Shown piece by piece: positions 119-24,290 of a stretch of 32,000 nucleotides of DNA (within the stretch, counting starts at the first letter, position 1; each line of letters begins with the position of its first letter). The position numbers and the translations under genes are program-made. The notes under the pieces were generated by a model. That model ran no database searches, was not told the origin of the DNA, and was given only the letters and a program-made list of their open reading frames with translations. This DNA comes from an uncultured Chloroflexia bacterium (GTDB lineage Bacteria > Chloroflexota > Anaerolineae > Anaerolineales > Anaerolineaceae). The stretch covers positions 3,000,001 through 3,032,000 of the forward strand of contig OY969938.1 of NCBI GenBank assembly GCA_963704755.1, read 5' to 3'.

Positions 119-1032
119 GGGGGTAAATCACGGAGGCACAGAGTACACGGAGAAGAAATTAGGAAATAAATGTAGCCCGGCTTTCAAAGCCGGGGGGGTA
201 GCTGAGGCTGTGAGGGAAGAATCTGGCTCTTCCCTCCAAATCGGTTTTTGATTTGGGGGGAAGAGGGGAAGCGGGGCAAAGAGCCGGCCAGGCCCGCTAG
301 GCCGGAGTGATGGCGGTTAAAAACCGCATCTACAAGTACACGAAGATCCACCTTCGTGGGTCTCCTTTTCGATGTAGACCGCGTTCAATGGCCGAGATGC
401 TGCCCGGCCAGTGTTTTCTCGGGTTCGAAACCCGAGCTACCCAATCGAGACTGTCCCGGCTTTCAAAACCGGCTATAAAAAGACCCTCCAGGCCGGGTTG
501 AGCCCCACGCAGGTGGGGCTTCGTGTATTTGTTGCCGCGACCTTGGTCGCCAACGCCGGCAGCAAAGCCCGGTAAAACGAATGCCCCATCCGTAATAATG
601 CAGCCCTTACGCCCCCGGCTACGAACAGGGTTTCGCTAATCGCTAACGGCTAACAGACCGACGGTGGGTTACGGGCAGGACCTGGTAGGCCAGGCCGGCC
701 GGCAGTTCGCCGGTGTGCTTAATGAGCCCTGCACCCACCTTACAAGCCGATATTCAATCGGGCATAGGTTTGGGTTGAGCCCCACGCAGGTGGGGCTTCG
801 TGTATTTGTTGCCGCGACCTTGGTCGCCAACACTGGCAGCAAAGCCCGGTAAAACGAATGCCCCATCCGTAATAATGCAGCCCTTATGCCCCCGGCTACG
901 AACAGGGTTTCGTTAATCGCTAACGTCGGTGGGTTACGGGCAGGGCCTGGTAGGCCAGGCCGGCCGGCAGTTCGCCGGCATGCTTAATGAGCCCTGCACC
1001 CACCCTACATTTCTTATGGCTAATAGCCACTC
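119..1032. repeat. Non-coding mosaic of palindromic repeat modules, including a direct duplication (495-744 and 773-1009, period ~278 bp)
   Basis: Solo GTAG-footed hairpin tGTAGcccggctttcaaagccggg at 171-198. Reverse-oriented ctcgggttcgaaacccgagCTAC at 418-440. Module gagccccacgcaggtggggcttcgtgtatttgttgccgcgaccttggtcgcc occurs twice (about 499-552 and 777-830). ccacggaggcac-type module at 121-160. The only ORFs are short and cross the repeats. Confidence 0.85.
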
Positions 1033-3975: not shown

Positions 3976-4046
3976 CTGGGGCGCCTGGATTCGAACCAAG
4001 ATCCACAGATCCAAAGTCTGGTGTGCTGCCGTTGCACCACGCCCCA
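3976..4046 (-). tRNA. tRNA-Gln (anticodon UUG), no encoded CCA
   Basis: Minus strand reads TGGGGCG TG GTGC AACGGCA GCAC A CCAGA CTTTGGA TCTGT GGAT CTTGG TTCGAAT CCAGG CGCCCCA G. This gives a cloverleaf with a 7-bp acceptor stem, a U1-A72 pair with G73 (typical of bacterial tRNA-Gln), a TTCGAAT T-loop, and anticodon loop CUUUGGA. Confidence 0.9.
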
Positions 4047-6482: not shown

Positions 6483-6544
6483 TTGGCTTTCCTTTGGGCC
6501 GGGATGATCTTGTCATTGTAGATAAAAAAGGGGCAGAAAGCAAC

Positions 6545-7190
6545 ACTTTATTAGCGGGTAGCTTTTAGCGATTAGCTGTTAGCTTTTAGCTTGTAGGTTG
6601 GGTTGCGGGCTTTTTCAAATTACCGGCGAATTACCGGATTGTGTAAAATTCCAGTCCCTACCCGTAACCCAACTTTATGTTTGGCGATCGCGGTTGTTGG
6701 GTTACGGGCAAGGCTTAGCTTGTAGGTTGGGTTGCGGGCTCATTCAAATTGCCGGCGAATTACCGGATTGTGTAAAATTCCAGCCCCTGCCCGTAACCCA
6801 ACCTTATGTTTGGCGATCGCGGTTGTTGGGTTACAGGCAAGGCTTAGATAACCGAGAATCCTGTTTATGCCCAAGCCTCAATAACGAGCCCGAACCCAAC
6901 CTACGAGGCTGTTAGCTTTTAGCTTGTAGGTTGGGTTGCGGGCTCATTCAAATTGCCGGCGAATTACCGGATTGTGTAAAATTCCAGTCCCTGCCCGTAA
7001 CCCAACATTATGTTTGGCGATCGCGGTTGTTGGGTTACGGGCAAGGCTTAGATAACCGAGAATCCTGTTTATGCCCAAGCCTCAATATCGAGCCCGAACC
7101 CAACCTACGAGGCTCTTCTCCGTGCCTGTGGTTAACTCCGTTCATATTAATTTCTTCTCCGTGCCCTCCGTGCCTCCGTGGTTAACCTTT
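6545..7190. repeat. Tandem/mosaic array of GTAG-footed long-loop palindromic repeats (three copies: 6589-6718, 6719-6847 plus extension, 6923-7051 plus extension), followed by ctccgtg modules
   Basis: Repeated core: cttGTAGgttgggttgcgggc-(~50 nt)-gcccgtaacccaac-(22 nt)-gttgggttacgggcaaggcttag. Copies 2 and 3 add ataaccgag...gagcccgaacccaacCTACgaggct. Preceded by a TTAGC-rich tract at 6550-6590. The same arms recur at 21308, 21544 and 24146. Confidence 0.9.
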
Positions 7191-7197
7191 TCTCCTA

Positions 7198-8256
7198 ATG
7201 ATGTTCTCGCCGGGAACGGATCAGGGTATACTTGAAATGCACCCGGGCAGAAGATCTTGCCCATTTCTCTTCCCGCTTGAGGCCCTATTGAGCTCCCCCA
7301 ACGTCAGCGTCGACCTGGTCATCCCGGTATATAACGAACAGGAGGTGGTACAGCAGTTCCACCTCAATTTACGCACGGTGATCGACGCGCTGCCGTTTTC
7401 CTTTGCGATTATCTACGTGGACGACGGCTCGCAGGACGCCACCCCGGCCAGGTTGGACGCGATCTCGACCGCCGATCCGCGGGTGAAGGTGGTCCAGTTG
7501 AGCCGTAATTTCGGCCACCAGGCCGCCCTGACCGCCGGCATGGACCTGACCCAGGGCGATTACGTCATCACCCTGGACGGAGACGGCGAACACCCGGTCA
7601 CGCTGATCCCTGAGATGATCCGCCTGGCGCAGAGCGGTTACGATGTGGTCCAAACCCAGCGCAGTGATGCCCAGCAGGCTTCGCCTTTCAAGCGCTGGAC
7701 TTCGCAGGCCTTCTACAGCCTGATCAACCGCCTGGGCAACACCCGCATCCTGCCCGGCGGGGCCGACTTCCGCCTGATGAGCCGCACGGTGGTGGACGCA
7801 CTGTGCGAAATGCGCGAATACCAGCGCTTTTTACGCGGCATGGTGGCCTGGATGGGCTATAAGACGGTCATTTTGCCGTATGCCCCCCAGCCGCGCCTGG
7901 GCGGGCGCTCCAAATATTCCCTGCGGCAGATGCTGCGCCTGGCTACCAATGCCATCTTCTCTTTCTCACTGGTGCCGCTGTACATCAGCATATCGATCGG
8001 GGGCATTTTTCTACTGCTGGCCCTGGTCGAGATGATCTACGTGCTCAGCTTTTGGGTCAGCGGGCAGCAGTCCTCGCTGGCGCCCGGCTGGAGCTCGCTG
8101 ATGTTCGTGCTGCTGGTGGTGGGCGGGGCTTTGATGGTCACCCTGGGCTTTGTGGGCATCTACATTGGCTACATCTTCCAGGAGGTCAAGGGCCGGCCGA
8201 TCTACCTGGTTCGCAAGGTTATTTCATCCGCGCGGGACGACTCTGCGCATGATTGA
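7198..8256 (+). CDS. Family-2 glycosyltransferase, polyprenyl-phosphate glycosyltransferase type (GtrB/ArnC/DPM1-like)
   Basis: VDLVIPVYNEQEVV, YVDDGSQDAT, SRNFGHQAALTAGM and ITLDGDGEHP, plus two C-terminal TM helices. The start is uncertain: ATG at 7198, ATG at 7237, or TTG at 7288 preceded by GAGG. Confidence 0.85.
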   Translation: MMFSPGTDQGILEMHPGRRSCPFLFPLEALLSSPNVSVDLVIPVYNEQEVVQQFHLNLRTVIDALPFSFAIIYVDDGSQDATPARLDAISTADPRVKVVQLSRNFGHQAALTAGMDLTQGDYVITLDGDGEHPVTLIPEMIRLAQSGYDVVQTQRSDAQQASPFKRWTSQAFYSLINRLGNTRILPGGADFRLMSRTVVDALCEMREYQRFLRGMVAWMGYKTVILPYAPQPRLGGRSKYSLRQMLRLATNAIFSFSLVPLYISISIGGIFLLLALVEMIYVLSFWVSGQQSSLAPGWSSLMFVLLVVGGALMVTLGFVGIYIGYIFQEVKGRPIYLVRKVISSARDDSAHD

Positions 8257-10309
8257 GACGCTGCGCCGCTGGCTCCGGCGTCCGCTGGATGACCGCCTGG
8301 TTCCATTGTTGCTGCTGGTGCTGGCCTTTCTGGCTTATGGCCTGTTGTTCCTCTGGCAGGGATATTACTGGGACGACTACCCGCTCACCTGGACTGCCCA
8401 TACCTTCGGCCTGGCCGGCCTGGCGCGCTATTTTTCCACCAACCGGCCCTACTGGGGGCTGCTCTACCAGCTTTCCAACAGCCTGTTGAGCGCCCAACCC
8501 TGGCAGTGGCAGTTGTTCGCCCTGTTCTGGCGCTGGGCCGCCTCGGTGACCTTCTGGCTGGCGCTGCGGCGCCTGTGGCCCGGCCGCCGTTCGACCACTA
8601 CCCTGGCGGCGGTGGCCATTTTGCTTTACCCGGGCTTCGGCCAGCAGGCCATCGGCATGGTGTATGGGCATTTCTTCCTGGTGCTGACGGCTTTCCTCTT
8701 TTCGATCTACGCCAACCTGCGCGCCTTGGCCGGACGGCGGGCAGCCTGGGCCTGGACGCTGGCTGCCCTGGCGGCCTCATTCCTCAACCTGATCACCCTG
8801 GAGTATTTTTTTCTGCTGGAGCTGATCCGCCCGGTATGTATCTGGCTGGTCAATAAAGGCGACAAACGCGGGAAAGAACGCCTCAAGTCAGCATTTTGGG
8901 CATGGCTGCCTTACCTGGTGCTGTTCCTCGGGGTGGGCCTGTGGCGGGTCTTTTTCTTTACCTACCAGACCAACAACTATGCCCCCAGCGGACTGGCGAC
9001 GCTCAAGGCCGCGCCGCTGGCCGGGTTGATCCAGTTGATTGGGCGGGTATTCGGCCAGGCAGCCCTGGCCGGTTTCGCGGCCTGGGCCAAACCGTTCACA
9101 TTTTCCTTCCTGGCCGGGTTGGGCAAAGCCAATACGCTCATCTACCTGGCGGTTGGCCTGGCCGGCGCCGCTTTGACTGCCCTGGCCCTGTGGAAGCAGG
9201 CCCATGAGACCGCCGGCCTGGAAGGCCGGCGCCGCACCGCGCTGGAAATGGTTGCCCTGGGGTTATTTATCCTCTTGATCGCCGGCGGCCCATTTCTCCT
9301 GACCGGCCTGCCGGTTAAACTGGTCTTCCCCAACGACCGCTTTACCCTGCCTTTTATGGCCGGGTCGGCGCTGGTGCTGGCCGGGCTGGCCCACTGGATT
9401 CTGCCGCGCTTCAAAGGGCTGCGGGTGGGCCTGCTGGCGCTGCTGCTGGGGCTGAGCTGCGCTTACCTGTTTGCCAACAGCACTTCCTATCGCCGCGATT
9501 GGCTCACCCAGCGGGCCTTCTTCTGGCAGCTCACCTGGCGCGTCCCCCAGTTGCAGCCCGGCACTACCCTGATGTCCAACGACCTGCCGGTGAGCTACTA
9601 CAGCGACAACTCGCTCAGCGCGCCGCTCAACTGGATCTACGCCCCTCAGAACCAGACCGAGGAGATGGACACGATCTTGCTCTACCCCTCCCTGCGGGTG
9701 GGGCTGCCTGAACTGCCCTCGCTCGACCCGGGCACACCCATTCACATCGATTACCTTTCGGCCCAGTTCGACGGCAGCACCGACCAGGTGGTGGCGCTGT
9801 ATTACCAGCCGCCGGCCTGCCTGCGCATCCTCGACGGGCAGGTGGAGGCGGATAACCTGTTCGTGCCCCTGCAAATCCGCTCGGTCGCGGCCAGCCTGAG
9901 TTCGACCCGCTGGATTATCCCCGACCTGGCCCAGTCGGCCGCGCCGATGGCAGAGTATTATGGCAGCGAGCCGGCCCATGGATGGTGTTATTATTACGAG
10001 AAAGCCGACCTGGCCCGCCAGCAGCAGGATTGGCAGCAGGTGGTGACCTTGGGCGACCAGGCCTTTAGCCTGAACGATTATCCCAATGATCCGGCCGAGC
10101 GCATGCCGTATATCGAGGGGTACGCTCACCTGGAGCGCTGGGGGGATGCCCTGGAGCAGACTCGCCTGGCGGCGGACGTTTCGCCGGTCATGCGGCCGGT
10201 ATTGTGCAGCTTGTGGCAGCGCATCGATACCCAAACCGGGGCGAGCGCGCAAAAACAAGCGGCTGTCCAGCAGGTGGATGAACTGCTGGCCTGTAACACG
10301 CAAAAGTGA
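8249..10309 (+). CDS. GT-C-fold membrane glycosyltransferase candidate (ArnT/PMT-like) with a soluble C-terminal domain
   Basis: I place the start at the ATG at 8249 (MIETLRRW...), which overlaps the GT2 stop by 8 nt. About 470 aa contain many hydrophobic helices. An acidic YYWDDYPL motif follows TM1, as in GT-C enzymes. The C-terminal ~200 aa are hydrophilic and helical-repeat-like. The assignment rests on architecture, not a search. Confidence 0.6.
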   Translation: MIETLRRWLRRPLDDRLVPLLLLVLAFLAYGLLFLWQGYYWDDYPLTWTAHTFGLAGLARYFSTNRPYWGLLYQLSNSLLSAQPWQWQLFALFWRWAASVTFWLALRRLWPGRRSTTTLAAVAILLYPGFGQQAIGMVYGHFFLVLTAFLFSIYANLRALAGRRAAWAWTLAALAASFLNLITLEYFFLLELIRPVCIWLVNKGDKRGKERLKSAFWAWLPYLVLFLGVGLWRVFFFTYQTNNYAPSGLATLKAAPLAGLIQLIGRVFGQAALAGFAAWAKPFTFSFLAGLGKANTLIYLAVGLAGAALTALALWKQAHETAGLEGRRRTALEMVALGLFILLIAGGPFLLTGLPVKLVFPNDRFTLPFMAGSALVLAGLAHWILPRFKGLRVGLLALLLGLSCAYLFANSTSYRRDWLTQRAFFWQLTWRVPQLQPGTTLMSNDLPVSYYSDNSLSAPLNWIYAPQNQTEEMDTILLYPSLRVGLPELPSLDPGTPIHIDYLSAQFDGSTDQVVALYYQPPACLRILDGQVEADNLFVPLQIRSVAASLSSTRWIIPDLAQSAAPMAEYYGSEPAHGWCYYYEKADLARQQQDWQQVVTLGDQAFSLNDYPNDPAERMPYIEGYAHLERWGDALEQTRLAADVSPVMRPVLCSLWQRIDTQTGASAQKQAAVQQVDELLACNTQK

Positions 10310-13270: not shown

Positions 13271-13699
13271 ATGGCGGAGTTGAAAACAAAACCTACCGAA
13301 GAAAATGTCGAAAGCTTTCTGAATGGAATTTCCGACGAGAAAAAGCGCCAGGATAGCTTGGTCATCCTGGAATTGTTCAAGAAAATCACCCAAAAAGAGC
13401 CGCGCATGTGGGGCAGCAGCATCGTTGGCTTTGGCCATTACCATTATCATTACGATAGCGGCCGGGAAGGGGATTGGTTCGTGACCGGTTTTTCGCCCCG
13501 CAAGGATGCGATTACGCTCTACCTGGTGTACGGCCTGGAACGTTTCGATGACTTGATGAGCAAATTGGGTAAATATAAAACCGGCAAAGCCTGCTTATAC
13601 ATCAAAAAAGTCGAAGACATTAATCTGGACGTGCTCAGCGAGTTGATCAAGCGATCGGTGGAGACGATGAAGATGAGGCAACTCGGGCTGAAAACCTAA
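13271..13699 (+). CDS. DUF1801 (YdhG-like) domain protein
   Basis: KPTEENVESFLNGISDEKKRQDSLVILELFKKIT..PRMWGSSIVGFGHYHYHY.SGREGDW matches the DUF1801 pattern. AGGAG RBS. The TAA stop at 13697-13699 abuts the first repeat unit. Confidence 0.7.
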   Translation: MAELKTKPTEENVESFLNGISDEKKRQDSLVILELFKKITQKEPRMWGSSIVGFGHYHYHYDSGREGDWFVTGFSPRKDAITLYLVYGLERFDDLMSKLGKYKTGKACLYIKKVEDINLDVLSELIKRSVETMKMRQLGLKT

Positions 13700-14210
13700 G
13701 CGAGTCTCCAGCCCCCCCGGCTTTGAAAGCCGGGCTACATGCTAACCGCGTTTTGGGATGGTAGCTCGGGTTTCTAACCCGAGAGGTATCACCAGGATTC
13801 CGGTTTAACAAAAGCGGATATGCCGGCCGGGATGTGGGCTCGTTTCCGAATCCAAGTGAGTCTCCAGACCACCCGGCTTTGAAAGCCGGGCTACATGCTA
13901 ACCGCGTTTTGGGATGGTAGCTCGGGTTTCTAACCCGAGAGGTATCACCAGGATTCTGGTTAAACAAAAACGGATATGCCGGCTGGAGTGAGGGCTCGGT
14001 TTTAGAATCCAAGCGAGTCTCCAGACCCCCCGGCTTTGAAAGCCGGGCTACATGCTAACCGCGTTTTGGGATGGTAGCTCGGGTTTCTAACCCGAGAGGT
14101 ATCACCAGGATTCTGGTTAAACAAAAACGGATATGCCGTCCTGGAATGGCGGCTCGGTTTTCAATCCCAAGCGAGTCTCCAGCCCACCCGGCTTTGAAAG
14201 CCGGGCTACG
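13698..14210 (+). repeat. Tandem array U: 3 full + 1 partial copies of a ~157-bp composite REP unit
   Basis: Units start at 13698, 13854, 14011 and 14169 (partial, 42 bp). Each begins aagcgagtctccag..cccggctttgaaagccgggCTAC-22 nt-GTAGctcgggtttctaacccgag-aggtatcaccaggattctggtt... The units are near-identical to each other. Confidence 0.95.
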
Positions 14211-14267
14211 CAAATTCCGATCCGAAAAATTGATTTCGGTTTGGTTGGACTAATATAAAATTTGTTT

Positions 14268-14789
14268 ATGTCCAAATATCACCGTTATTATTTGCCTAAT
14301 TCTTCGGTTTTTATCACTACCGTTACACGCAAACGAGAACCTATTTTCGAAACGCCCGCAAATCAAGAACTCTTTCTGCAAGTCGCGGAAAATGTTAAGT
14401 GCCTCTATCCATTCGATTTAGATGCCTATGTAATCATGCCTGACCATGTACATATGTTGCTTTCCCTTTTGGAAGGTTCATCTAATTTCTCTGTGATTAT
14501 CCATAGCCTGAAACGGAACTTCTCTTGGGAATACAAAAAACTATGGAATATTTCAGGCTCCGTAAGGATTTGGCAAGAAAGATTTTGGGACCATTTAATT
14601 CGGAATGAAACAGATTATGAAAGGCATATGGATTACATCCATTACAATCCGGTAAAGCATGGGCAGGTGAAGTCGCCCAGTCAATGGATATATAGCAGTT
14701 TCAATTTTTGGGTCAATAAAGAGGTTTATCCCATGTATTGGGGAGATGATCAAGTGCCAGGAAATCTTAAAGGGGCCGAATGGGGATGA
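14268..14789 (+). CDS. REP-associated tyrosine transposase (RAYT / TnpA_REP; IS200-like Y1 HUH enzyme)
   Basis: HUH motif in VIMPDHVHMLLSL. RAYT-typical C-terminal block WQERFWDHLIRNETDYERHMDYIHYNPVKHGQV, with the catalytic Tyr in YIHYNPV. About 173 aa. Single gene with no TnpB partner, flanked by REP arrays. I prefer the ATG at 14268; the track starts at TTG 14262. Confidence 0.9.
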   Translation: MSKYHRYYLPNSSVFITTVTRKREPIFETPANQELFLQVAENVKCLYPFDLDAYVIMPDHVHMLLSLLEGSSNFSVIIHSLKRNFSWEYKKLWNISGSVRIWQERFWDHLIRNETDYERHMDYIHYNPVKHGQVKSPSQWIYSSFNFWVNKEVYPMYWGDDQVPGNLKGAEWG

Positions 14790-14838
14790 GTTTTGTGGAT
14801 GCCGGAGATCGTTTGGGGAGAGCATAAGGTTGAATCCC

Positions 14839-15476
14839 AAGCGAGTCTCCAGACCTCCCGGCTTTGAAAGCCGGGCTACAAACGGACACGCTATGGAATG
14901 GTAGCTCGGGTTTCCAACCCGAGGGGTATCACCAGGATTTTGGTTTAACAACAGCGGATATGCCGGCCGGAATGAGGGCTCGTTTCCAAAACCAAGCGAG
15001 TCTCCAGACCTCCCGGCTTTGAAAGCCGGGCTACAAATGGACACGCTATGGAATGGTAGCTCGGGTTTCCAACCCGAGGGGTATCACCAGGATTTTGGTT
15101 TAACAACAGCGGATATGCCGGCCGGAACGAAGGCTCGTTTCCAAAACCAAGCGAGTCTCCAGACCTCCCGGCTTTGAAAGCCGGGCTACAAATGGACACG
15201 CTATGGAATGGTAGCTCGGGTTTCCAACCCGAGGGGTATCACCAGGATTTTGGTTTAACAACAGCGGATATGCCGGCCGGAACGAGGGCTCGGTTTTAGA
15301 ATCCAAGCGAGTCTCCAGACCTCCCGGCTTTGAAAGCCGGGCTACAAACGGATACGCTATGGAATGGTAGCTCGGGTTTCCAACCCGAGGGGTATCACCA
15401 GGATTCTGGTTTAACAACAGCGGATATGCCGACCGGAACGATGGCCTGTTTTCCGAATCCAAGCGAGTCTCCAGAC
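14839..15476 (+). repeat. Tandem array D: 4 full + 1 partial copies of a ~155-bp composite REP unit (sub-family distinct from array U)
   Basis: Units start at 14839, 14994, 15149, 15305 and 15461 (partial, 16 bp). Same architecture and orientation as array U. It has its own spacer (aaa[c/t]gga[c/t]acgctatggaatg) and a different REP loop (tttccaac). Confidence 0.95.
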
Positions 15477-15913
15477 TTCGTTCCCCCTTGTTGAAGCTGC
15501 GAAGAATTTTCGGGCCCATCTCCATCGCCATGAAAGAATGGATTTCTAGAAATTCGTCGCGTATCGGGATTTCTTCGCATCCTCGAAAGGGGGAATGGCG
15601 CGTCGTTTCTTGCCCCCTTCGTAAGGGGGGTGGGGGATTCTTGAATTGGCCTGAGAACCAGCCAATTAGATTAAGTGTTCTTTTTTGATTTTCACTAAAG
15701 CCGGGTTGCTGATTTTGAACCAAAACCAACTCTGATTCGACATACCCATGGCGATACCTTTTTGGCGTTTACCGCGTATACATTAAAGTTCCATTAACTC
15801 AGGCTTATGATTCATTTAATGACCGGTTTGGTCATCATCCCATCGGAAGGGTTGCGTTATAATAAAATACGAAGGATGGAGGCAATTGAACCTCCATCGT
15901 TTAGGCTTAAGCG

Positions 15914-16558
15914 ATGATCCAACAAGTCACGGACATGTTACGGGAATTCTGGTTTTCGATGTTGACGCCCCAGGCGATACTGCCCCATTTGTGGCTGTAC
16001 CTGACCCTGGTGGTTTTGGTTATGCTGGAAGGCCCTGTATCCATTCTGGTTGCTGCTGGGGCCGCCTCAACCGGGTTCTTGAACCCGCTGCCGGTGCTGA
16101 TCGCCGCCACATTGGGCAATTTGATCGCCGATGCTTTGTGGTACAGCCTGGGTTATTTCGGAAAAATCGATTGGGTACTGAGCCGCCGCAGGTGGTTTGG
16201 TGTGGACCCACAAAAACTTAAATCATTGAAGGGGATCATCAATCGTTACGCCGTCAGGCTGCTGATCTTTGCAAAAGTCACCAATGGCTTGATCGTCCCG
16301 GTGTTGATCTCGACGGGAGTGGCACGCGTATCCTGGCGACGCTGGTTCCCTATAATTCTGGTTACGAACATTCTGACGAGCATTGCAATGGTGTTGATCG
16401 GATTTTTCATGGCATCCAGCTTACTCCACGTTCAGCAGGGCATTCGTTATGTGGCTATTGCCTCCACGCTGGTTCTGCTGTTAGGCGGATATTTTCTGTT
16501 TCGACGTTTGCTAAGCCGCAGCGACTTGCTCGCCTCGCTCGAAGGCCAGAACCAGTAA
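15914..16558 (+). CDS. DedA/VTT (SNARE-associated) family membrane protein
   Basis: 214 aa with multiple TM helices. LEGPVSILVAAGAASTGFLNPLPVLIAATLGNLIADALWYSLGYFGK resembles the DedA core re-entrant region. Confidence 0.65.
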   Translation: MIQQVTDMLREFWFSMLTPQAILPHLWLYLTLVVLVMLEGPVSILVAAGAASTGFLNPLPVLIAATLGNLIADALWYSLGYFGKIDWVLSRRRWFGVDPQKLKSLKGIINRYAVRLLIFAKVTNGLIVPVLISTGVARVSWRRWFPIILVTNILTSIAMVLIGFFMASSLLHVQQGIRYVAIASTLVLLLGGYFLFRRLLSRSDLLASLEGQNQ

Positions 16559-16576
16559 ATTGTTTTGAGGGGTCGT

Positions 16577-19003
16577 ATGCGAATACTAATTAGCGGGACG
16601 ATGTACCCGCCTGAATTGAACGGCCAGTCGGTGTTTACGGCGAACCTGGCGGAAGGAATGGCAGCGCGCGGCCATCGCGTGCGGGTACTGGTACCCGGTG
16701 CAGGCCGCCAGATTACCTATTCCATGCGCAACAACGTGGAGGTGGTCGAGTTACCTTCGCTCCATTTGCATATCGCTCACCAGGAGCTGAACCTGTCGCT
16801 GTTTACCGAACGGCCGGTGGCCGAACAATTCGACGATTTCCGGCCTGATGTCGTTCACGTACAGGATCCTTCTCCGCTGTGCCAATCCATTATCCATGAG
16901 GCGCACAGGCGCGGTGTTCCTGCGCTGGCTACCCATCACACCGGCCCGGAGATCACGGCGCCGTATTTTTCACTGGCCTCGGCCAGGGTGAAGAACGCAA
17001 TCGCCTGGATCGTCTGGAAAATGCTCCTGTTGTTCCTGAACAATGCCGACCAGGTTACGGTGCCTTCGAACAGCTCGGTGGCTATGCTGGATCAAAAAGG
17101 GCTGCGGAAAAGCGCAGTGCCCATATCTTGTGGGGTCCGCCTGGACAATTTCCACCCGGACGAACGCTTCCAGGCACTGCCCGCCTGCGAGGAGGTCCGC
17201 GAACGCTACGGCCTGAGCCCGGACAAGACCCTCCTGCTGTACGTGGGCCGGATCGATATCGAAAAACGCGTGGACGTACTGGTTAAAGCGATGGCATACC
17301 TGGCCAGCGACAATGTCGAGCTGGCCATCGCCGGTACCGGCGGGATGGAAGCCTCGGTAAAACACCAGATCGCGGAATTTCACCTGGAGAGGCGGGTGCA
17401 TTTGTTGGGCGGGGTACCGCACGAGGAATTGCCGGCGCTGCTCAACTGCGCCGATGTTTTTGCCATGCCGGGCGACGTCAAGTCGTTCAGCATTGCCACC
17501 CTGGAGGCTATGGCCTGTGGCAAGCCGGTCCTGGCGGCCAATTCTTCGGCGCTGCCTGAACTGGTTACCCATGGGGTAAACGGCTGCCTGTTCACGCCCG
17601 GCGACCCGCAGGATGCAGCCAGCCAGATCGAGCAGCTCATCCAGAACCGGGACCAATGGGAAACGATGGGCCAGGTCAGCATGGAGCGAGCCCGCCGTCA
17701 CCGCCTGGATGCGGTGATGGGCAAGTATGAACGAATTTATCAGGCCAGTGTCGCGAGCAAAGCACAACCGGTCGTCGCGCCGGCTACACCGCGGCCGCTG
17801 GCCGGCCTGTCTTTGAACCTTCATTACCCGGAATTCAACCGCAGGATGGCTTTTCGACCGCTGTCCTTTTTAGTGATCTTTGGGTTCTTATTATGTTCGA
17901 TGTTATTCAGCGCAGACAGCACTTACGCTGCTCCCAACCTGCCCAACCAGGATCTCAAGACGATCAACCTGACCAATATCACCAAACTGTTGGTCATCTC
18001 ACCGGATGACGACAGCAGTATCAAGAGCACAGGCGGGCTGATCCGCGCAGTGATTGACCAGGGCGGTCGGGTACAAATTTTAGTGCTGCCAGACAGCGCC
18101 CAGTCTGAAACAGACAGCAATGCTACCGGGACAACCCCGGGTGGAAAGCAAACCTCACGCGCGCTGAGTTCGGCGTTGCTTGACCTGGGCATTCCCCAGG
18201 AAATGGTCGATTACTTCAACGAGCCAGCGGCAGCCCCGGCTGCCGGCCAGAGCGATTCTGGTAAAAAGCTTTCTGGGGCAGGCAATATCGCCGCCCACTT
18301 GAGCCTGGCAAGCCTGGGCCTGACGGAAAAGAATTTTATGCGCCAGTTAGGCGCAATTTTGAAGGACTTTAAGCCGGACACGGTCCTGGTACCGGATACC
18401 CAGAAGCAGGGCAGCACCTCCACCTCGATCGACGACCTGACCCAATTTGCCCTGGCAGCCGGCTATCTGGACGAAAATAATTCCTCTTTCCCGATGTTGT
18501 TCGCCTATCTGGTGAAAGATAACCAAACCGACGAGACTTCGCCAGACGTGAACAGTGTGCCGGCCGAGGTGGTGGACGGGCAGGCTTCCGGCTGGTATCG
18601 TTTCCCGGCCAGTCAGGTGCAAAGCGTCCCCAGTTCCGATAGCACTGCCGTGACGGCCACACCGCCGGCCAGTCAGGGCGACAGCGAACTGTTCTACCAG
18701 GTACCGGTGATAACCCGGGATCTGCTGGACAAGAAGACAGCGGAGCCGTTAACCCTGGCAAAGGTGTGGGACAACAACCCGGTTGTGATCCGCCAGTTGC
18801 GGGTGGAAGACAGCACCTGTTACGCGCTGCAGGTCGCCGGTAGCACCACCAACCCAACCGATTCGGATGGGCACATCCTGGGAGCGTGTATGCAGAAGCA
18901 GCAGGTGGCGGGAGACCGCACGGCCTACTCGCTGGGTTTCTGGAACAGCGGCTCATCCGGAATGGACGTCTGGCGACTGGTATTGATGGCCAATAAAAAA
19001 TAA
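16577..19003 (+). CDS. GT4-family glycosyltransferase fused through one TM helix to a ~370-aa extracytoplasmic domain
   Basis: I place the start at the ATG at 16577 (MRILISGTMYPPELNGQS). Glycos_transf_1 region LLYVGRIDIEKRVDVLV ... EAMACGKPVLAANSSALPELV (EX7E). TM segment LSFLVIFGFLLCSMLF around aa 440. The distal domain contains LLVISPDDDSSIKSTGGLIRAVIDQGGRVQILVL, a degenerate PIG-L/LmbE-like motif. Confidence 0.8.
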   Translation: MRILISGTMYPPELNGQSVFTANLAEGMAARGHRVRVLVPGAGRQITYSMRNNVEVVELPSLHLHIAHQELNLSLFTERPVAEQFDDFRPDVVHVQDPSPLCQSIIHEAHRRGVPALATHHTGPEITAPYFSLASARVKNAIAWIVWKMLLLFLNNADQVTVPSNSSVAMLDQKGLRKSAVPISCGVRLDNFHPDERFQALPACEEVRERYGLSPDKTLLLYVGRIDIEKRVDVLVKAMAYLASDNVELAIAGTGGMEASVKHQIAEFHLERRVHLLGGVPHEELPALLNCADVFAMPGDVKSFSIATLEAMACGKPVLAANSSALPELVTHGVNGCLFTPGDPQDAASQIEQLIQNRDQWETMGQVSMERARRHRLDAVMGKYERIYQASVASKAQPVVAPATPRPLAGLSLNLHYPEFNRRMAFRPLSFLVIFGFLLCSMLFSADSTYAAPNLPNQDLKTINLTNITKLLVISPDDDSSIKSTGGLIRAVIDQGGRVQILVLPDSAQSETDSNATGTTPGGKQTSRALSSALLDLGIPQEMVDYFNEPAAAPAAGQSDSGKKLSGAGNIAAHLSLASLGLTEKNFMRQLGAILKDFKPDTVLVPDTQKQGSTSTSIDDLTQFALAAGYLDENNSSFPMLFAYLVKDNQTDETSPDVNSVPAEVVDGQASGWYRFPASQVQSVPSSDSTAVTATPPASQGDSELFYQVPVITRDLLDKKTAEPLTLAKVWDNNPVVIRQLRVEDSTCYALQVAGSTTNPTDSDGHILGACMQKQQVAGDRTAYSLGFWNSGSSGMDVWRLVLMANKK

Positions 19004-19024
19004 ATCGGCCGTTGGTAGAAGATT

Positions 19025-19077
19025 CCGAATTTAAACAATTTGCGGTGGCATTGCCACCGCAAATTGTTTAAATTCGG
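19025..19077 (+). terminator. 53-nt near-perfect palindrome downstream of the GT4 fusion gene (putative terminator)
   Basis: ccgaatttaaacaatttgcggtggca-t-tgccaccgcaaattgtttaaattcgg, 22 nt after the TAA stop. A T-run (gtgttttttt) follows about 15 nt later. Confidence 0.55.
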
Positions 19078-19312
19078 ATAGGTTTAAAAGGTGTTTTTTT
19101 GCAATTTTTAGCCAAATTTTATAAAGAGATTTTCTATCTGACCGGTATACAGAAAAAATAGGCATTATAATTGGACACCAACAGCCGTAATGTTTGAACA
19201 ATGCCGAAACGGTTTGGGAATACCCCCCAGGGGAATTCATTTTACGGGGTAAACAGGGATAACCTGACTATTTTCTCCCGAGCATCATCCACCATTGAAC
19301 GAGGTCGTTTGA

Positions 19313-20308
19313 ATGTCAGAATTGCTCAATGTACAAGGCCTGGAAACACAGTTTAATACCAGAGAGGGAATGGTCCATGCCGTTAACGGCGTTTCCTTCA
19401 AGCTGGACGAGGGGGAGACTTTAGGCATCGTAGGCGAAAGCGGCTGCGGGAAGAGCGTAACCGTCATGTCTATGCTGCGCCTGATCCCAACACCACCGGG
19501 AAAAATCGTCGCCGGTCAGGCTTTTTTTCAAGGCAAAGACCTGTTAAAAATGTCGGACGATGAGATTCGCCAGGTACGCGGTTCTCAGATCAGCGTGGTT
19601 TTCCAGGACCCGATGACTTCATTTAATCCGGTCATGACAATCGGCCGCCAGGTGGCCGAGCCGCTGGAAGTCCACCTGGGGATGAAACCCAAAGAGGCCG
19701 AACAGCGGGTGATCGAAATGCTGACCAAAGTGGGCATTCCTAATCCGGCCGACCGGTTGGACAATTACCCGCACCAGTTTTCGGGCGGTATGCGCCAGCG
19801 GGTGATGATTGCTATGGCATTGGTCTGCGCACCGCAGTTGCTGATTGCCGACGAACCAACCACCGCCCTGGATGTGACCATTCAGGCTCAAATCGTGGAG
19901 TTGGTCAAACGTCTGCGGGATGACCTGGGAATGGGCATCATCTGGATCACCCATGACCTGGGCGTGATCGCCGGGCTGGCCGATCGCCTGGCGGTGATGT
20001 ACGGCGGTTTCATCGTCGAAACTTCGACGGTGGGCGATCTTTACCACCACCCCTCCCATCCGTATACCCTGGGACTGTTGGGCAGCCTGCCCCGGGTGGA
20101 TAAAGGCGTCAATCAGCGCCTGGTATCCATCGAAGGGCTGCCGCCGGTCTTGTTGCAAAAGCCTCATTTTTGCCCGTTTGCCCCCCGCTGTAGTTATGTA
20201 CGCGAGCGTTGTTGGAATGAAAATCCGCCTTTGATTGAGGTGGAACCCGACCACTATTCAGCCTGCTGGGTAGAGCCTGAAACCGGGAGAGAACGTGATG
20301 CCATCTGA
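19313..20308 (+). CDS. Oligopeptide/dipeptide ABC transporter ATP-binding protein, OppD/DppD type
   Basis: Walker A GESGCGKS, signature FSGGMRQR, Walker [14 protein letters not shown]-loop ITHDL. C-terminal oligopeptide-transporter extension with Cys residues (CPFAPRC...C). Confidence 0.9.
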
Positions 20309-21278
20309 TGAAGCCATCCTGAGGGTCGAAAACCTGGTCAAATATTTTCCGATCTTGCAGGGGATCATTTTCCAGCGTGAGGTCGGGGCAGTCCATGCCG
20401 TGGACGATGTGTCTTTCGATGTTGTTCGGGGGGAAACTTTAGGTCTGGTGGGCGAATCGGGCTGCGGCAAATCGACGACCGGACGGGTGATCTTGCAGCT
20501 TTACCGGCCAACTTCCGGGAATGTCTATTTCGATGGGACCAACCTGGTCACGCTTCAAGGCGAAGCCCTGCGAAAAATGCGCAAACGCATGCAGATGATC
20601 TTCCAGGATCCGTATGCCAGCCTGAACCCACGCATGACCGTCGGACAGATCATTGGCGAACCCATGTTCATTCACGAGTCGATGAGCCGCAAGGATGTTA
20701 AGGAAAAAGCCGAGAACCTGCTGCAACTGGTGGGGCTGAACCCGGCTTACACCTCGCGTTACCCGCACGAATTTTCGGGGGGCCAGCGCCAGCGGATTGG
20801 CATTGCCCGGGCCCTGGCGCTCAACCCGGACCTGATTGTGTGTGATGAGCCGATCTCGGCCCTGGATGTTTCGGTGCAGGCCCAGGTGGTCAACCTGCTC
20901 GAGGATCTGCAAGCCCAGTTCAACCTGACCTACGTATTTATTGCGCACGACCTATCGATGGTGCGACATATCAGCAGCCGGGTAGCCGTGATGTACCTGG
21001 GCGTCATCGTGGAGTTAGCCGCGCGCGATGAGCTCTACGAGCATCCGCTGCATCCGTATACTCAGGCGCTCATGTCGGCCGTGCCCATCCCGGACCCGAC
21101 CGTCGAAAACCGGCGCCAGCGTACCATCCTGGTGGGCGACGTGCCCTCCCCGATCAACCCGCCTTCGGGCTGCCGTTTCCGTACCCGCTGCCCGCTGGCC
21201 GACAAAATTTGCGCCGAACAACGCCCCGAATTCCGCGAGCTCGCCCCCGGCCATTGGGTGGCCTGCCACATGGTGTAG
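20298..21278 (+). CDS. Oligopeptide/dipeptide ABC transporter ATP-binding protein, OppF/DppF type
   Basis: [41 protein letters not shown], and C-terminal [14 protein letters not shown]. The start overlaps the upstream stop (GTG 20295 or ATG 20298). Confidence 0.9.
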
Positions 21279-21284
21279 GGGAGA

Positions 21285-21795
21285 TAGCTTTTAGCGTTTA
21301 GCTGTTAGCTTGTCGGTTGGGTTGCGAGCTATTTTATGGCGCTCGGATATCGAGCGACATCTGGTTTACCGGGCCGTACCCGTAACCCAACGGGGTTAAA
21401 ACGGCTTAGGGCTCTCCCTCACCCCAACCCCTCTCCCAGAAACGGGAGAGGGGCAAGAATGGCGACCAGGGTCGCGGCAACAAATACACAAAGCCCCGCC
21501 TATGCAGGGCTTAATCTCGCCGGCATTAAATTGAATATCGATCTGTAGGTTGGGTTCGGGATCGTCAATAATGATGGCCGGGGACTATGGTGTTAATCGG
21601 CAATGGCCTTGCCCGAACCCAACGTCGCGTTTGGCCATCGTGAATGTTGGGTTACGGGCAAGGCCTGGTAAAACGGAATTGTTTGCTGGCCCCGGCGTCA
21701 TAAAAAAGCCCGCAACCCAACCTACAGGCTGTTGGTTCAGCTACCCCCCGGCTTTCAAAGCCGGGCTACAAGCTAAAAGCTAACCGCTAATCGCT
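21285..21795. repeat. Composite of several of the window's repeat families in one intergenic block
   Basis: - TTAGC tract + gtcggttgggttgcgagc...cccgtaacccaac (21308-21392).
- ccctctcccagaaacgggagaggg hairpin (about 21428-21452).
- Inverted copy of the gcgacc/ggggc module (21460-21520).
- ctGTAGgttgggttcggg...gcccgaacccaac...gttgggttacgggc...gcccgcaacccaacCTACag (21544-21730).
- CTACcccccggctttcaaagccgggCTAC (21741-21770). Confidence 0.9.
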
Positions 21796-21799
21796 CTCA

Positions 21800-22615
21800 T
21801 CACGGTGTCGCCGTGGGACCGGGGGTGTTGGTGGGTACGAGGTTCGGGTCGATGGACCACACGTCCAGGTTGCTGAAATTGATCGTTTCGGGAGAGGAGC
21901 CGCCGGTCCGGGCGAAAACGCCGATTAATCCGCTGCTAAAGACCGGGTCGCTGGTGCGGAACTGCTCATTGCCTTCGATATAAAAGCGCATTTCCTGGCC
22001 ATACATCCACACGCCCAGGTGAACTGTCACCGGCGCGCCTTCGCGAATATCCCCCGAGGGCAGCCAGTCTTGCAACAGGACGATGTAGCCATTTTGCAGG
22101 CGTTCCAGGCGGGTTTGCCCGTCGCAGGTGACTACCCAGCGGTAACCGTTATAGGCATCCGTGGCCCGCAGCAGCAGGCCATAGCTATCCGAATCGCGGC
22201 ACAGGCTGGGACTGGCGGTGATTTCCAGGTAAAAATTGCCCAGTTCCGGTGCGCTGCGCATGCTGTTCAGCAGCGTCTTTTCGCCGGTAATAGCCAGGGT
22301 AAATTCGTTTTTGCCAAAGGCGGCACTGCCCGATGAAACCAGGATCTTTTCCCAGGCGCGGGTATCGCTGAAATCGTCGTGGAGCAGCGAACTGGACTTT
22401 CCCAGCGACAGGGTCGGTTGTGCGGTCGGCGACTGGATGGGTATCCGGGTGGGCGTAGCCGTCATGGGGAACCAGTCGATGGTGGCCGTGGGCGGTAGAG
22501 AGGTGGCCGGGCTGGCTGTGGGTTCAAGCGGGGTCGGGGATGTGGCCTGTAAAGGCGCACATGCCGATACCCCTACACAGAAAACGATCAAAAGCCAGGC
22601 CAGGCATACTTTCAT
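21800..22615 (-). CDS. Putative secreted lipoprotein with a Pro/Thr-rich linker and a beta-rich domain (function unknown)
   Basis: Signal peptide with a lipobox-like VGVSAC. Then a P/T/S-rich ~50-aa linker, then a ~190-aa domain rich in aromatic and Gly residues. The ATG overlaps the purA stop (ATGA). Confidence 0.6.
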   Translation of the reverse strand: MKVCLAWLLIVFCVGVSACAPLQATSPTPLEPTASPATSLPPTATIDWFPMTATPTRIPIQSPTAQPTLSLGKSSSLLHDDFSDTRAWEKILVSSGSAAFGKNEFTLAITGEKTLLNSMRSAPELGNFYLEITASPSLCRDSDSYGLLLRATDAYNGYRWVVTCDGQTRLERLQNGYIVLLQDWLPSGDIREGAPVTVHLGVWMYGQEMRFYIEGNEQFRTSDPVFSSGLIGVFARTGGSSPETINFSNLDVWSIDPNLVPTNTPGPTATP

Positions 22616-24135: not shown

Positions 24136-24290
24136 AGGAGCGGATAGCGGTTAGCCTGTAGGTTGGGTCGCGGGCTCTTTCATAACGCCGGCGTATGGAA
24201 AGGACTTCGTTTTACCGGGCATTGCCCGTAACCCAACGGGATTCGGACGGCTCATCCCCTGGCCCCTTCCCCCAGAACGGGGGAAGGGGA
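24136..24290. repeat. Solo GTAG-footed long-loop repeat plus a cccttccccc/gggggaaggg hairpin
   Basis: gcggatagcggttagcctGTAGgttgggtcgcgggc-(~50 nt)-gcccgtaacccaac (24136-24237), then cccttcccccagaacgggggaaggg (about 24264-24288). These are the same families as at 6589 and 21428. Confidence 0.8.

Follow-up and report, generated by a model that had tools for sequence, protein, structure and literature searches.

A RAYT gene bracketed by same-orientation tandem REP arrays in an Anaerolineaceae genome

The window, by which we mean the whole 32-kb stretch of DNA analyzed, comes from an Anaerolineaceae relative of Bellilinea, a new host for the RAYT/REP system. It contains one copy of a RAYT gene, bracketed by two tandem arrays in the same orientation (13698-14209 and 14832-15476). 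The initial annotation had described this arrangement, and both Tandem Repeats Finder (TRF) and a split of the arrays at an anchor sequence confirmed it. The features of the locus are as follows:

13668..13697, plus strand: degenerate unit tail (repeat families reach 13670/13680; tail alignment)
13698..14209, plus strand: upstream array (TRF), with units U1 13698-13853, U2 13854-14010, and U3 14011-14168
14169-14209, plus strand: upstream partial unit, terminating in REP-A
14210..14267, plus strand: AT-rich RAYT leader (31% GC), a 58-nt gap after the upstream array
14222-14239: small hairpin in the RAYT leader
14230-14259: promoter-like TTGATT-18 nt-TATAAA in the leader, read by eye and not flagged by a stricter scan
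14268..14789, plus strand: RAYT/TnpA_REP gene, 173 aa (NCBIfam NF047646, Pfam Y1_Tnp, PDB 4ER8)
14790..14838, plus strand: diverged linker from the RAYT stop to the first downstream unit, ending in the GAATCCC unit-tail motif
14839..15476, plus strand: downstream array (anchor split), with units D1 14839-14993, D2 14994-15148, D3 15149-15304, and D4 15305-15460
15461-15476, plus strand: downstream stub of 16 nt, anchor only, without a REP
15477..15712, no strand assigned: non-repetitive remainder of the lineage-specific block, up to the return of blastn homology to the related contig L093 at 15713
15484-15506 / 15571-15593: imperfect 23-nt inverted repeat within that remainder

The RAYT protein carries the HUH motif as PDHVHML (H60/H62) and the catalytic-tyrosine motif as YIHYNPVKHG (Y123), and it keeps all 12 columns that are invariant in an alignment of 39 family sequences. 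It scored 151.1 bits on the NF047646 REP_Tyr_transpos model (cut-off 80) and 31 bits on the NF033573 transpos_IS200 model (cut-off 55), and it matched E. coli TnpA_REP (PDB 4ER8) over residues 1–162 with 39% identity and an E-value of 1.5e−31. The proposal that the protein is a RAYT and not an IS200 TnpA is thus borne out. The identical protein was recorded on one contig (4.87 Mb), as a one-member cluster; RAYTs are characterized by one copy per genome and a housekeeping-like distribution. In a rough neighbor-joining tree, with E. coli RayT as the only labeled reference, the window RAYT grouped in a Chloroflexota-centered clade, apart from the proteobacterial sequences including E. coli RayT. 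The latter belongs to Group 2, and Group 4 has been described as "common in Cyanobacteria, Chlorobia and Caldilineae" (Bertels et al. 2017); membership of the window RAYT in Group 4 is plausible from this taxonomic pattern. The GC content of the gene is 39.8%, and its GC3 is 0.41, versus 0.66–0.72 in the neighboring genes. Because RAYT genes lie below their flanks in GC across the family (by 6 points on average, with a negative difference in 50 of 56 loci), we rejected the low GC as decisive proof of transfer and regard it as weak evidence of a recent one.

TRF resolved the upstream array into 3.3 copies with a period of 156–157 (92% matches, score 873) and the downstream array into 4.1 copies with a period of 155 (95% matches, score 1151). 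When unit borders were set by cutting at the anchor AAG[CT]GAGTCTCCAG, the upstream array gave three full units (156, 157, and 158 bp) and one partial unit, and the downstream array gave four full units (155, 155, 156, and 156 bp) and a partial one, the same numbers as first reported. The further claim that both arrays end in the same REP segment fails, because the downstream array ends in the 16-nt anchor without a REP. Likewise, the upstream repeat had been said to start at 13698, but the similarity already begins at 13668, approximately 30 nt before that point and within the DUF1801 gene upstream (13271-13699). The final ~10 codons of this gene and its stop come from the degenerate unit tail; the Pfam DUF1801 domain stops at residue 129 of the 142 in the gene product, whose C-terminus diverges beyond LIKRSV. 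As a side observation, the arrays also produce spurious long minus-strand ORFs.

Each unit consists of two related 23-nt REPs followed by approximately 90 nt of linker. In unit alignments, identity was 88–92% inside the upstream array and 92–98% inside the downstream array, whose units were 81–87% identical to the upstream ones. Furthermore, identity fell with distance along the array, from 98% for D1-D2 to 92% for D1-D4. The spacer between the two REPs is array-specific (identity of 0.96 within arrays versus 0.56 between them), whereas the long linker is common to both arrays (0.89 within versus 0.84 between). The two REPs, REP-A (GTAGCCCGGCTTTCAAAGCCGGG) and REP-B (GTAGCTCGGGTTTCYAACCCGAG), each comprise GTAG, a perfect 8-bp stem, and a 3-nt loop; the REP-B stem differs from that of REP-A at two positions, and the changes are compensating. 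The arrays hold eight exact copies of REP-A, all on the minus strand, and seven of REP-B, all on the plus strand, and neither sequence occurred in shuffled sequence:

13716-13738, 13872-13894, 14029-14051, 14187-14209, minus strand: REP-A in the upstream array (exact match; hairpin in minimum-free-energy folds)
13761-13783, 13917-13939, 14074-14096, plus strand: REP-B in the upstream array (exact match; folds)
14857-14879, 15012-15034, 15167-15189, 15323-15345, minus strand: REP-A in the downstream array (exact match)
14901-14923, 15056-15078, 15211-15233, 15367-15389, plus strand: REP-B in the downstream array (exact match)

REP-B follows REP-A after 21–22 nt with the GTAG tags facing inward, forming a tail-to-tail dimer. 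Within 700 nt of the RAYT gene, seven REPs upstream and eight downstream alternate between the minus and plus strands. On either side, the REP closest to the gene is a minus-strand REP-A, and these two are hence direct, not inverted; the nearest inverted pair around the gene consists of REP-A at 14187-14209 (minus strand, 58 nt upstream) and REP-B at 14901-14923 (plus strand, 111 nt downstream). In minimum-free-energy and centroid folds of the unit on either strand, REP-A and REP-B formed separate hairpins, and the single long hairpin that defines a REPIN did not appear; by manual count, the arms of REP-A and REP-B pair at only 18 of 23 positions. The doublet is organized as in a BIME, with two REP subtypes in alternating orientation, linkers, tandem reiteration, and well-conserved copies. 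The resemblance to BIMEs is one of organization only, as there is no sequence relationship to the E. coli Y and Z REPs. At least four hairpins per unit had been proposed, but only two were strong in the folds and the others were weak. An outer stem around REP-A appeared when a downstream unit was folded but was rejected because it is not conserved in the upstream units.

The intervals between the arrays and the gene were given in the initial annotation as 57 bp upstream and 49 bp downstream. The downstream value holds when counted to the anchor (42 nt to the TRF start), but the upstream gap is 58 nt (14210-14267). Apart from its last ~8 nt, the downstream linker (14790..14838) has weak similarity to the unit. 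We looked past the RAYT stop for a remnant of REP-B, whose presence would mean that the gene sits within the A-B linker, like that of the Caldilineaceae locus described below, and rejected the only candidate, a 12-nt match (GTTTTGTGGATG), as too weak. A scan found no excess of promoter- or terminator-like signals over shuffles. In Rfam, only a tRNA elsewhere in the window passes the gathering thresholds and the locus gives two chance-level matches (E ~ 0.6–1), and an explanation by a known RNA was set aside because no match at the locus exceeded the threshold. The non-repetitive remainder (15477..15712) also includes a CCCCCTT...AAGGGGG hairpin.

Outside the locus, three solo REP sites, all of them extragenic, occur in approximately 30 kb of the window:

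172..194, plus strand: solo REP-A, exact, extragenic
418-440, minus strand: solo REP-B with one mismatch, extragenic
455-476, minus strand: decayed REP-A-like hairpin with the tag ATAG, following the solo REP-B at 418-440 in the same orientation
21747..21769, minus strand: solo REP-A with one mismatch in the loop, extragenic

These correspond to the solo hairpins noticed initially at 171-198, 418-474, and 21741-21770. The last of them carries the flank GCTAACCGC, which is also found in the A-B spacer of the upstream array, and it sits in a segment missing from the relative L093. No dispersed A-B doublet occurs in the 32-kb window, only singlets and one head-to-tail pair. The exact REP-A 23-mer had no match in 185,579 representative genomes. 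A degenerate REP pattern searched in metagenomes found 11 contigs, all with the variant GTAGCCCGGGTTTCYAACCCGGG or other non-identical stems, and in two of the 11, the REP variant lay in arrays with a period of ~101 bp.

The related contig L093, whose PurA is 88% identical, has 99 nt at the intergenic site where the window has 2,045 nt; by blastn, homology to L093 halts at 13667 and returns at 15713. The 2,045-nt block is therefore lineage-specific. Furthermore, no copy of REP-A, REP-B, or REP-C occurred in the ~75 kb sampled from four relatives (three 21-kb segments of Bellilinea and 11 kb of L093), and the same ~75 kb held one perfect GTAG hairpin, of unrelated sequence, versus 18 in the 32-kb window. 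The block is most likely a gain of this lineage, as opposed to a loss in several relatives: these REPs are missing from the four related contigs, and the composition of the gene looks foreign. This polarity is drawn from only four related contigs, with sampling limited to one or two regions. The initial idea that the gene was inserted into a single array is only partly supported: the A-B spacers are 56% identical between the arrays against 96% within them, and the whole 2-kb block is absent from the relative.

Long composite amplified units had been taken as the distinguishing feature of the locus, but such units are known from Pseudomonas fluorescens SBW25 and E. coli, and comparable arrays occurred in the loci that we fetched. 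Many of 80 fetched RAYT loci have flanking tandem REP arrays, even a crude scan found 41 of 81 loci to have tagged hairpins both upstream and downstream of the gene, and other genomes show REP arrays of comparable or longer period. REP arrays also occur kilobases away from the RAYT gene (L002, 3666-4414; L010, 7913-8345; L038, 9813-10483). The REPs beside the closest RAYT homologs, in Litorilinea and Caldilineaceae, have the same 23-nt geometry as those of the window. In particular, the Caldilineaceae metagenome-assembled locus L010 (CBDBZO010000006.1), for which we found no description in the literature searched, has the same layout of three upstream and four downstream composite units in one orientation. 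Its RAYT is 46% identical to the window RAYT, and its unit contains two different inverted 23-nt GTAG REPs and an inner hairpin. L010 differs from the window in its unit length of 111–112 bp (155–158 bp in the window), in the position of its gene, which falls precisely within the tail-to-tail linker separating the two REP types, and in having a third array, oppositely oriented and 2.4 kb away.

Among described systems, SBW25 has tandem REP doublets that include flanking DNA, with one cluster beside each of three RAYTs (2011, PMC3116915); the largest cluster has four REPINs and one REP and spans >700 bp (Bertels & Rainey 2011, PMC3116915). The window arrays resemble these clusters in being ordered, tandem, near-identical REP doublets with flanking sequence included and a unit spacing of >150 bp (the next-neighbor peak in SBW25 is 184 bp). 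They differ in the host phylum (Chloroflexota; Anaerolineaceae), in their unrelated REP sequences, in having as doublet the distinct siblings A and B, which fold separately and not as one long REPIN hairpin, and in flanking the gene both upstream and downstream with a common orientation. In E. coli, tnpA_REP is bordered by variable numbers of tandem BIMEs (Ton-Hoang 2012, PMC3333891). The REPtron of E. coli K-12 (yafM/rayT, Y and Z2 REPs; PMC3333891), whose protein is 39% identical to that of the window, likewise has two sibling GTAG REP types in alternating orientation, in tandem beside the gene; its same-locus tandem copies are also well conserved, and the locus is present or absent among related genomes. 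Unlike the perfect 8-bp stems and 3-nt loops of the window, the E. coli REPs are imperfect palindromes of 29–37 nt with a required mismatch bulge, and the repeat unit of the window is longer (155–158 bp) with more non-REP linker. The REPtron Sm of Stenotrophomonas maltophilia ("group 3" TnpA_REP; Corneloup et al. 2021, PMC8266576), in which REP_Sm is cleaved in vitro by TnpA_Sm, has the identical 23-nt geometry of GTAG, 8-bp stem, and 3-nt loop; its REP sequences differ from those of the window, where the Sm CT cleavage site could not be mapped. Finally, REP dimers tandemly reiterated with segments of flanking DNA, and GTAG REPs in Chloroflexi, have been reported (Di Nocera 2013, PMC3733652).

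The best explanation, to which we assign a probability of approximately 0.85, is that the locus is a REPtron, with a RAYT gene among its presumed cognate REPs and with doublets plus linker amplified locally on both sides. The gene has GTAG palindromes, including inverted copies, on either side, in agreement with the initial view of a REPtron-like locus. It is an ordinary example of a known system and not a new kind of element; it extends the well-described RAYT and REP/BIME/REPIN system to an Anaerolineaceae genome. The RAYT is a domesticated Y1 HUH single-strand DNA endonuclease/transposase with REP-A and REP-B as its presumed substrates, and the tail-to-tail doublets, comparable to BIMEs or REPINs, have been amplified together with ~90 nt of linker into arrays. 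From what is known of the TnpA_REP proteins of E. coli, S. maltophilia, and Marinomonas, we infer that the window protein acts on REP-A and REP-B: it would bind the folded single-stranded REP via the GTAG tag and the stem, cleave beside the hairpin, and form a 5′-phosphotyrosine link. By the same analogy, strand rejoining could remove REP units and insert them anew, and it could add further tandem copies near the site of synthesis of the enzyme; models for RAYT-driven amplification have been proposed (PMC3116915, PMC3333891, PMC3733652). Host unequal recombination or gene conversion probably also homogenizes each array, given that similarity is highest between adjacent units and that the arrays share the linker but differ in the A-B spacer.

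It is possible, though doubtful, that the arrays were made and are kept purely by host slippage, unequal crossing-over, and gene conversion, with a RAYT that only seeds or disperses single REPs or is no longer active. The decay of identity with distance, with neighbors most alike, is the classic signature of unequal exchange, and the arrays located kilobases from RAYT genes in L002, L010, and L038 also fit this explanation. However, arrays directly flank RAYT genes on both sides in many unrelated lineages, the E. coli enzyme TnpA_REP builds tandem products resembling BIMEs in vitro (PMC3333891), and the exchange points in the module pattern coincide with the REPs, the expected cutting sites of a RAYT. 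We consider it unlikely that the arrays owe their maintenance chiefly to a host function, such as attenuation or insulation, mRNA stabilization, or gyrase- or IHF-like binding between the DUF1801, RAYT, and VTT/glycosyltransferase genes, which would in any case be compatible with a REPtron. The RAYT and all flanking genes share the plus strand, and any read-through transcript would therefore include 15 stable hairpins; such roles of REPs and BIMEs are documented (PMC3333891), and REP hairpins have been suggested to down-regulate RAYT expression (Di Nocera et al., PMC3733652). Nevertheless, a related species lacks the block at the same intergenic site, the scan found no terminator-like excess, and Rfam had no match above threshold at the locus.

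An autonomous IS200/IS605-type insertion sequence, with hairpins as its left and right ends, would account for the Pfam Y1_Tnp domain, for the direct orientation of the gene-nearest hairpins, as in IS200/IS605 ends, and for the missing 2-kb block in L093. We nonetheless regard it as very improbable, given the 31 bits on transpos_IS200 (cut-off 55) against 151 on REP_Tyr_transpos, the lack of a tnpB-like ORF among the window ORFs, and the record of the identical protein on a single contig as a one-member cluster; moreover, GTAG-tagged REPs also occur without the gene, and instead of unique ends, the gene is flanked by multi-copy arrays. Equally little weight can be given to an assembly artifact, that is, the expansion or mis-joining of a short repeat. 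The Logan contig L001 (ERR11571143) does break 42 nt into the array, leaving the copy number without independent confirmation, but the units differ by specific substitutions and indels, the spacers differ between the arrays, and the same architecture is found in other genomes, including on multi-megabase contigs. In addition, the junction between the DUF1801 gene and the array is present in that independent read set (ERR11571143), with one SNP and one indel relative to the window.

Beyond the REPtron itself, a bolder and rather improbable scenario would be that a Chloroflexota-centered RAYT clade preferentially amplifies long multi-hairpin composite units of 110–160 bp in cis, in one orientation and on both sides of the gene, that it shuffles modules between REP cleavage points, and that the RAYT was recently acquired in the Anaerolineaceae lineage. 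The last part is suggested by the foreign-looking GC3 and the sister taxa without these REPs. If this were true, this genome, set beside its REP-free relatives, would offer a natural before/after view of REP colonization. In any case, the empty-site relative and the window make a clean comparative pair, which could help to date the REP invasion and to test whether RAYTs amplify REP units beside their own gene. For annotation, the lesson of this locus is that such arrays give false ORFs, break short-read assemblies, and, here, rewrote the 3′ end of a neighboring gene.

The REP-associated tyrosine transposase (RAYT) gene lies between two tandem REP-bearing arrays, as the initial annotation had proposed, and this arrangement was confirmed by Tandem Repeats Finder (TRF), by splitting the arrays at an anchor, and by counts of exact REPs. 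We assign a probability of about 0.85 to the locus being a REPtron, i.e., a RAYT gene flanked by cognate REPs; the observations made here comprise the identification of the enzyme with its motifs intact, REPs of the cognate type, the arrays, solo REP copies, and the lineage specificity of the block. The neighbouring DUF1801, VTT/DedA-like, and GT4 genes are ordinary and all co-directional.

172-194, plus strand: solo REP copy
418-440, minus strand: solo REP copy
3976-4046, minus strand: tRNA gene; no other Rfam match in the window reached a gathering threshold
13271-13699: DUF1801 gene
13698-14209: upstream tandem array (TRF period 156-157, 3.3 copies, 92% matches)
14268-14789, plus strand: RAYT ORF, 173 aa, with the motifs PDHVHML and YIHYNPVKHG, between the two arrays
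14832-15476: downstream tandem array (TRF period 155, 4.1 copies, 95% matches)
15914-16558: VTT/DedA-like membrane protein gene
16565-19003: GT4 glycosyltransferase gene
21747-21769, minus strand: solo REP copy
22612-23907, minus strand: PurA gene, 77-78% identical to Bellilinea proteins

The similarity of PurA indicates that the host is an Anaerolineaceae (Chloroflexota) relative of Bellilinea, and the three solo copies bear out the initial observation that the array hairpins also occur elsewhere in the window.

The RAYT protein scored 151 bits against the NCBIfam model REP_Tyr_transpos (cut-off 80) versus 31 bits, below the cut-off of 55, against transpos_IS200, and also matched Pfam Y1_Tnp. 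The protein is therefore a RAYT, as first annotated, and not an IS200 TnpA, and it is very improbable that the locus is an IS200-type element. The solved E. coli TnpA_REP structure 4ER8 matched it with E = 1.5e-31 and approximately 39% identity. In an alignment with 38 homologues, all invariant residues were kept, including H60, H62, and Y123, and the ATG at 14268 was consistent with the aligned N-terminus. The nearest homologues, 48-55% identical, come from Litorilinea, Caldilineaceae, Brevefilum, other Chloroflexota, and Zixibacteria, and a rough neighbour-joining tree grouped the protein with them in a clade centred on Chloroflexota that excluded E. coli RayT. A RAYT group is common in Cyanobacteria, Chlorobia, and Caldilineae (Bertels et al. 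2017, PMC5581495), and the patchy distribution of RAYTs fits transfer and loss (Quentin et al. 2018, PMC6006769). The RAYT gene has a GC content of 39.8% versus 57% in the flanking sequence (a gap of -17.5 points), and a GC3 of 0.41 versus 0.66-0.72 in neighbouring genes. Because RAYT GC was below that of the flanks in 50 of the 56 loci examined (mean, -6 points), low GC is a family trait and supports recent transfer only weakly; gaps were widest (-16 to -19 points) at L006, L018, and L004, the first and last of which are from Anaerolineae. The translated tblastn match ranges of six RAYT loci from other genomes (L006, L007, L013, L025, L043, and L059) contain in-frame stops, which may reflect pseudogenes, frameshifts, or imprecise match coordinates.

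Unit borders were set by splitting the arrays at the anchor AAG[CT]GAGTCTCCAG. The upstream array thus comprises three full units (U1-U3, 156-158 bp) and a partial unit (14169-14209), and the downstream array four full units (D1-D4, 155-156 bp) and a 16-nt stub; 58 nt separate the ORF from the upstream array, and 49 nt separate it from the anchor of the downstream array. On the plus strand, each unit reads as follows.

Part 1: 18-nt lead, AAGCGAGTCTCCAGACCN
Part 2: REP-A as its reverse complement (…CCCGGCTTTGAAAGCCGGGCTAC)
Part 3: A-B spacer, 21-22 nt
Part 4: REP-B, GTAGCTCGGGTTTCYAACCCGAG
Part 5: linker, approximately 70 nt

The linker holds a short stem of the CCAGG…CTGG type and the palindrome CCGGCCGG, as well as a hairpin that resembles a decayed REP (GGCTCG…CGAG) and continues into the lead of the next unit. 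The arrays contain eight exact copies of REP-A (GTAGCCCGGCTTTCAAAGCCGGG), all on the minus strand, and seven of REP-B, all on the plus strand; shuffled sequences gave none of either. REP-A and REP-B are built alike, each with 23 nt comprising GTAG, a perfect stem of 8 bp, and a loop of 3 nt; they differ at two stem positions, each compensated on the opposite arm, so they are sibling REPs. Exactly the same 23-nt geometry is found in a REP of S. maltophilia (Corneloup et al. 2021, PMC8266576). The GTAG tags of the two REPs point toward each other, an arrangement that Di Nocera et al. (PMC3733652) call a tail-to-tail dimer. In DNA folds of the unit, the two REP hairpins were the only strong elements on either strand (z about -3.4 to -3.6), and a single long REPIN-type hairpin was obtained on neither. 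Three minus-strand ORFs (13647-14012, 14595-15044, and 15100-15729; 121-209 aa) that cross the arrays, with repeated peptides as their products, are almost certainly repeat artefacts and could be mis-annotated as hypothetical proteins.

Unit identity was 88-92% within the upstream array, 92-98% within the downstream array, and 81-87% between them, and it dropped with distance (D1-D2, 98%; D1-D4, 92%). The A-B spacer was 96% identical within arrays versus 56% between them, and the long B-to-A linker 89% versus 84%; some linker-tail variants are common to both arrays (U1 with D1/D2, and U2 with D3). This modular pattern is consistent with local amplification and homogenisation in which the REPs are the points of exchange, and we infer that RAYT may make these exchanges. 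By analogy with the enzymes of E. coli, Stenotrophomonas, and Marinomonas, RAYT would recognise folded single-stranded REPs via the GTAG and stem and would cleave beside the hairpin through a 5'-phosphotyrosine intermediate, and the strand transfer could then excise, reinsert, or tandemly add units near the gene. Cleavage and strand transfer in vitro have been reported for E. coli TnpA_REP, together with models of RAYT-driven amplification (Ton-Hoang et al. 2012, PMC3333891). RAYT and host recombination may both have contributed to array growth; that it was the work of host recombination alone, without RAYT, we consider possible but rather unlikely. That the arrays are an assembly artefact is highly improbable, because the gene-array junction was present in an independent read set with its own SNP and indel.

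An empty site was found in L093, an ENA metagenome contig whose encoded PurA is 88% identical to that of the window. In this contig, the DUF1801 gene directly adjoins the VTT gene; blastn homology stops at 13667 and restarts at 15713 of the window, with 99 nt in L093 versus 2,045 nt in the window. The arrays, the RAYT gene, and a further 236 nt (15477-15712) therefore form a lineage-specific block. The two DUF1801 proteins align through …LIKRSV and then end in ETMKMRQLGLKT-stop in the window and ATKRESQS-stop in L093, diverging exactly where the DNA homology stops. Since the Pfam domain stops at residue 129 and the DNA of the last ~10 codons, at the 3' end of the gene in 13658-13699, looks like a unit tail, the window protein owes its C-terminus and stop codon to a degenerate first unit (13668-13697). 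No copy of REP-A, REP-B, or the separate repeat family REP-C was present in the 11 kb of L093 or in the 21 kb from each of three Bellilinea loci; these sequences together held a single perfect GTAG hairpin, unrelated in sequence, versus 18 such hairpins in the window. The other REP-bearing intergenic regions of the window (21279-21799 and 24158) likewise lie outside the L093 homology blocks. In this small sample, parsimony favours gain and expansion in the lineage of the window. In the non-repetitive block tail (15477-15712), an imperfect inverted repeat of 23 nt has arms at 15484-15506 and 15571-15593 that are 78% complementary, and the hairpin CCCCCTT-CGT-AAGGGGG lies near 15612-15630. The GT4 glycosyltransferase, a single 812-aa ORF in the window, corresponds to two calls in L093 (155 + 648 aa).

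When 80 RAYT loci of representative genomes were searched with TRF, REP-unit arrays were found immediately beside the RAYT gene in many lineages.

L005: period 42/84 bp
L008: periods 81 and 52 bp
L023: 78 bp x 7.8
L043: 51 bp x 9.7 and 199 bp x 2.7
L054: 61-67 bp x 3
L072: 52 bp x 11.7
L073: 30 bp x 9.4

Longer-period arrays of alternating REPs occur in Litorilinea (L002, 161 bp) and a Legionellaceae MAG (L038, 224 bp), and on environmental contigs there are ~101-bp arrays whose REP variant is intermediate between A and B. The plan of the window recurs in the Caldilineaceae MAG CBDBZO010000006.1 (L010; RAYT 46% identical), with three upstream and four downstream units in one orientation, each of 111-112 bp with two different inverted 23-nt GTAG REPs and an inner hairpin. 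A third array of the 111-bp composite unit (7913-8345, 3.9 copies, opposite orientation) lies 2.4 kb downstream of this RAYT, so that the whole unit also occurs away from the gene. There are published precedents as well: each RAYT of P. fluorescens SBW25 has an adjoining cluster, the largest being four REPINs and one REP over >700 bp (PMC3116915); the REPtron was defined as tnpA_REP with tandem BIMEs in variable number at its borders (PMC3333891); and GTAG REPs in Chloroflexi, and dimer clusters reiterated in tandem with flanking DNA, were reported by Di Nocera et al. 2013 (PMC3733652). Thus, the initial reading holds as to the RAYT and REPtron but fails as to an unusual organisation: with 7 + 8 REPs within 700 nt, the window is the REP-dense end of a continuum and no separate category. 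What the locus adds is that its host belongs to the Anaerolineaceae, that the site is empty in a relative, and that the C-terminus encoded by a neighbouring gene derives from the repeat.

A second lineage-specific segment spans 18982-21802 (2,821 nt) versus 6442-6591 (150 nt) of L093 and contains two oligopeptide-type ABC ATPase genes (19313-21278) and an intergenic region laden with REP-C and REP-A. REP-C is an unrelated GTAG-tagged family (GTAGGTTGGGTTGCGGGC ... GCCCGTAACCCAAC) at 6550-7114, 21290-21730, and 24158-24175, with 11 matches observed versus 0.05 expected; no RAYT for it was found in the window. Its long, imperfect hairpins (~70-80 nt) are combined into composites, both tandem and inverted, for which TRF gave periods of 129 and 204, and every copy lies in a segment missing from L093. 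Short TTAGC/AGCTTTT-rich runs (e.g., ttagcgggtagcttttagcgattagctgttagcttttagctt) at 6550-6592, 21290-21312, and 21770-21795 directly adjoin REP-C elements and the solo REP-A at 21747-21769, and GCTAACCGC also occurs within the A-B spacer of the upstream array.
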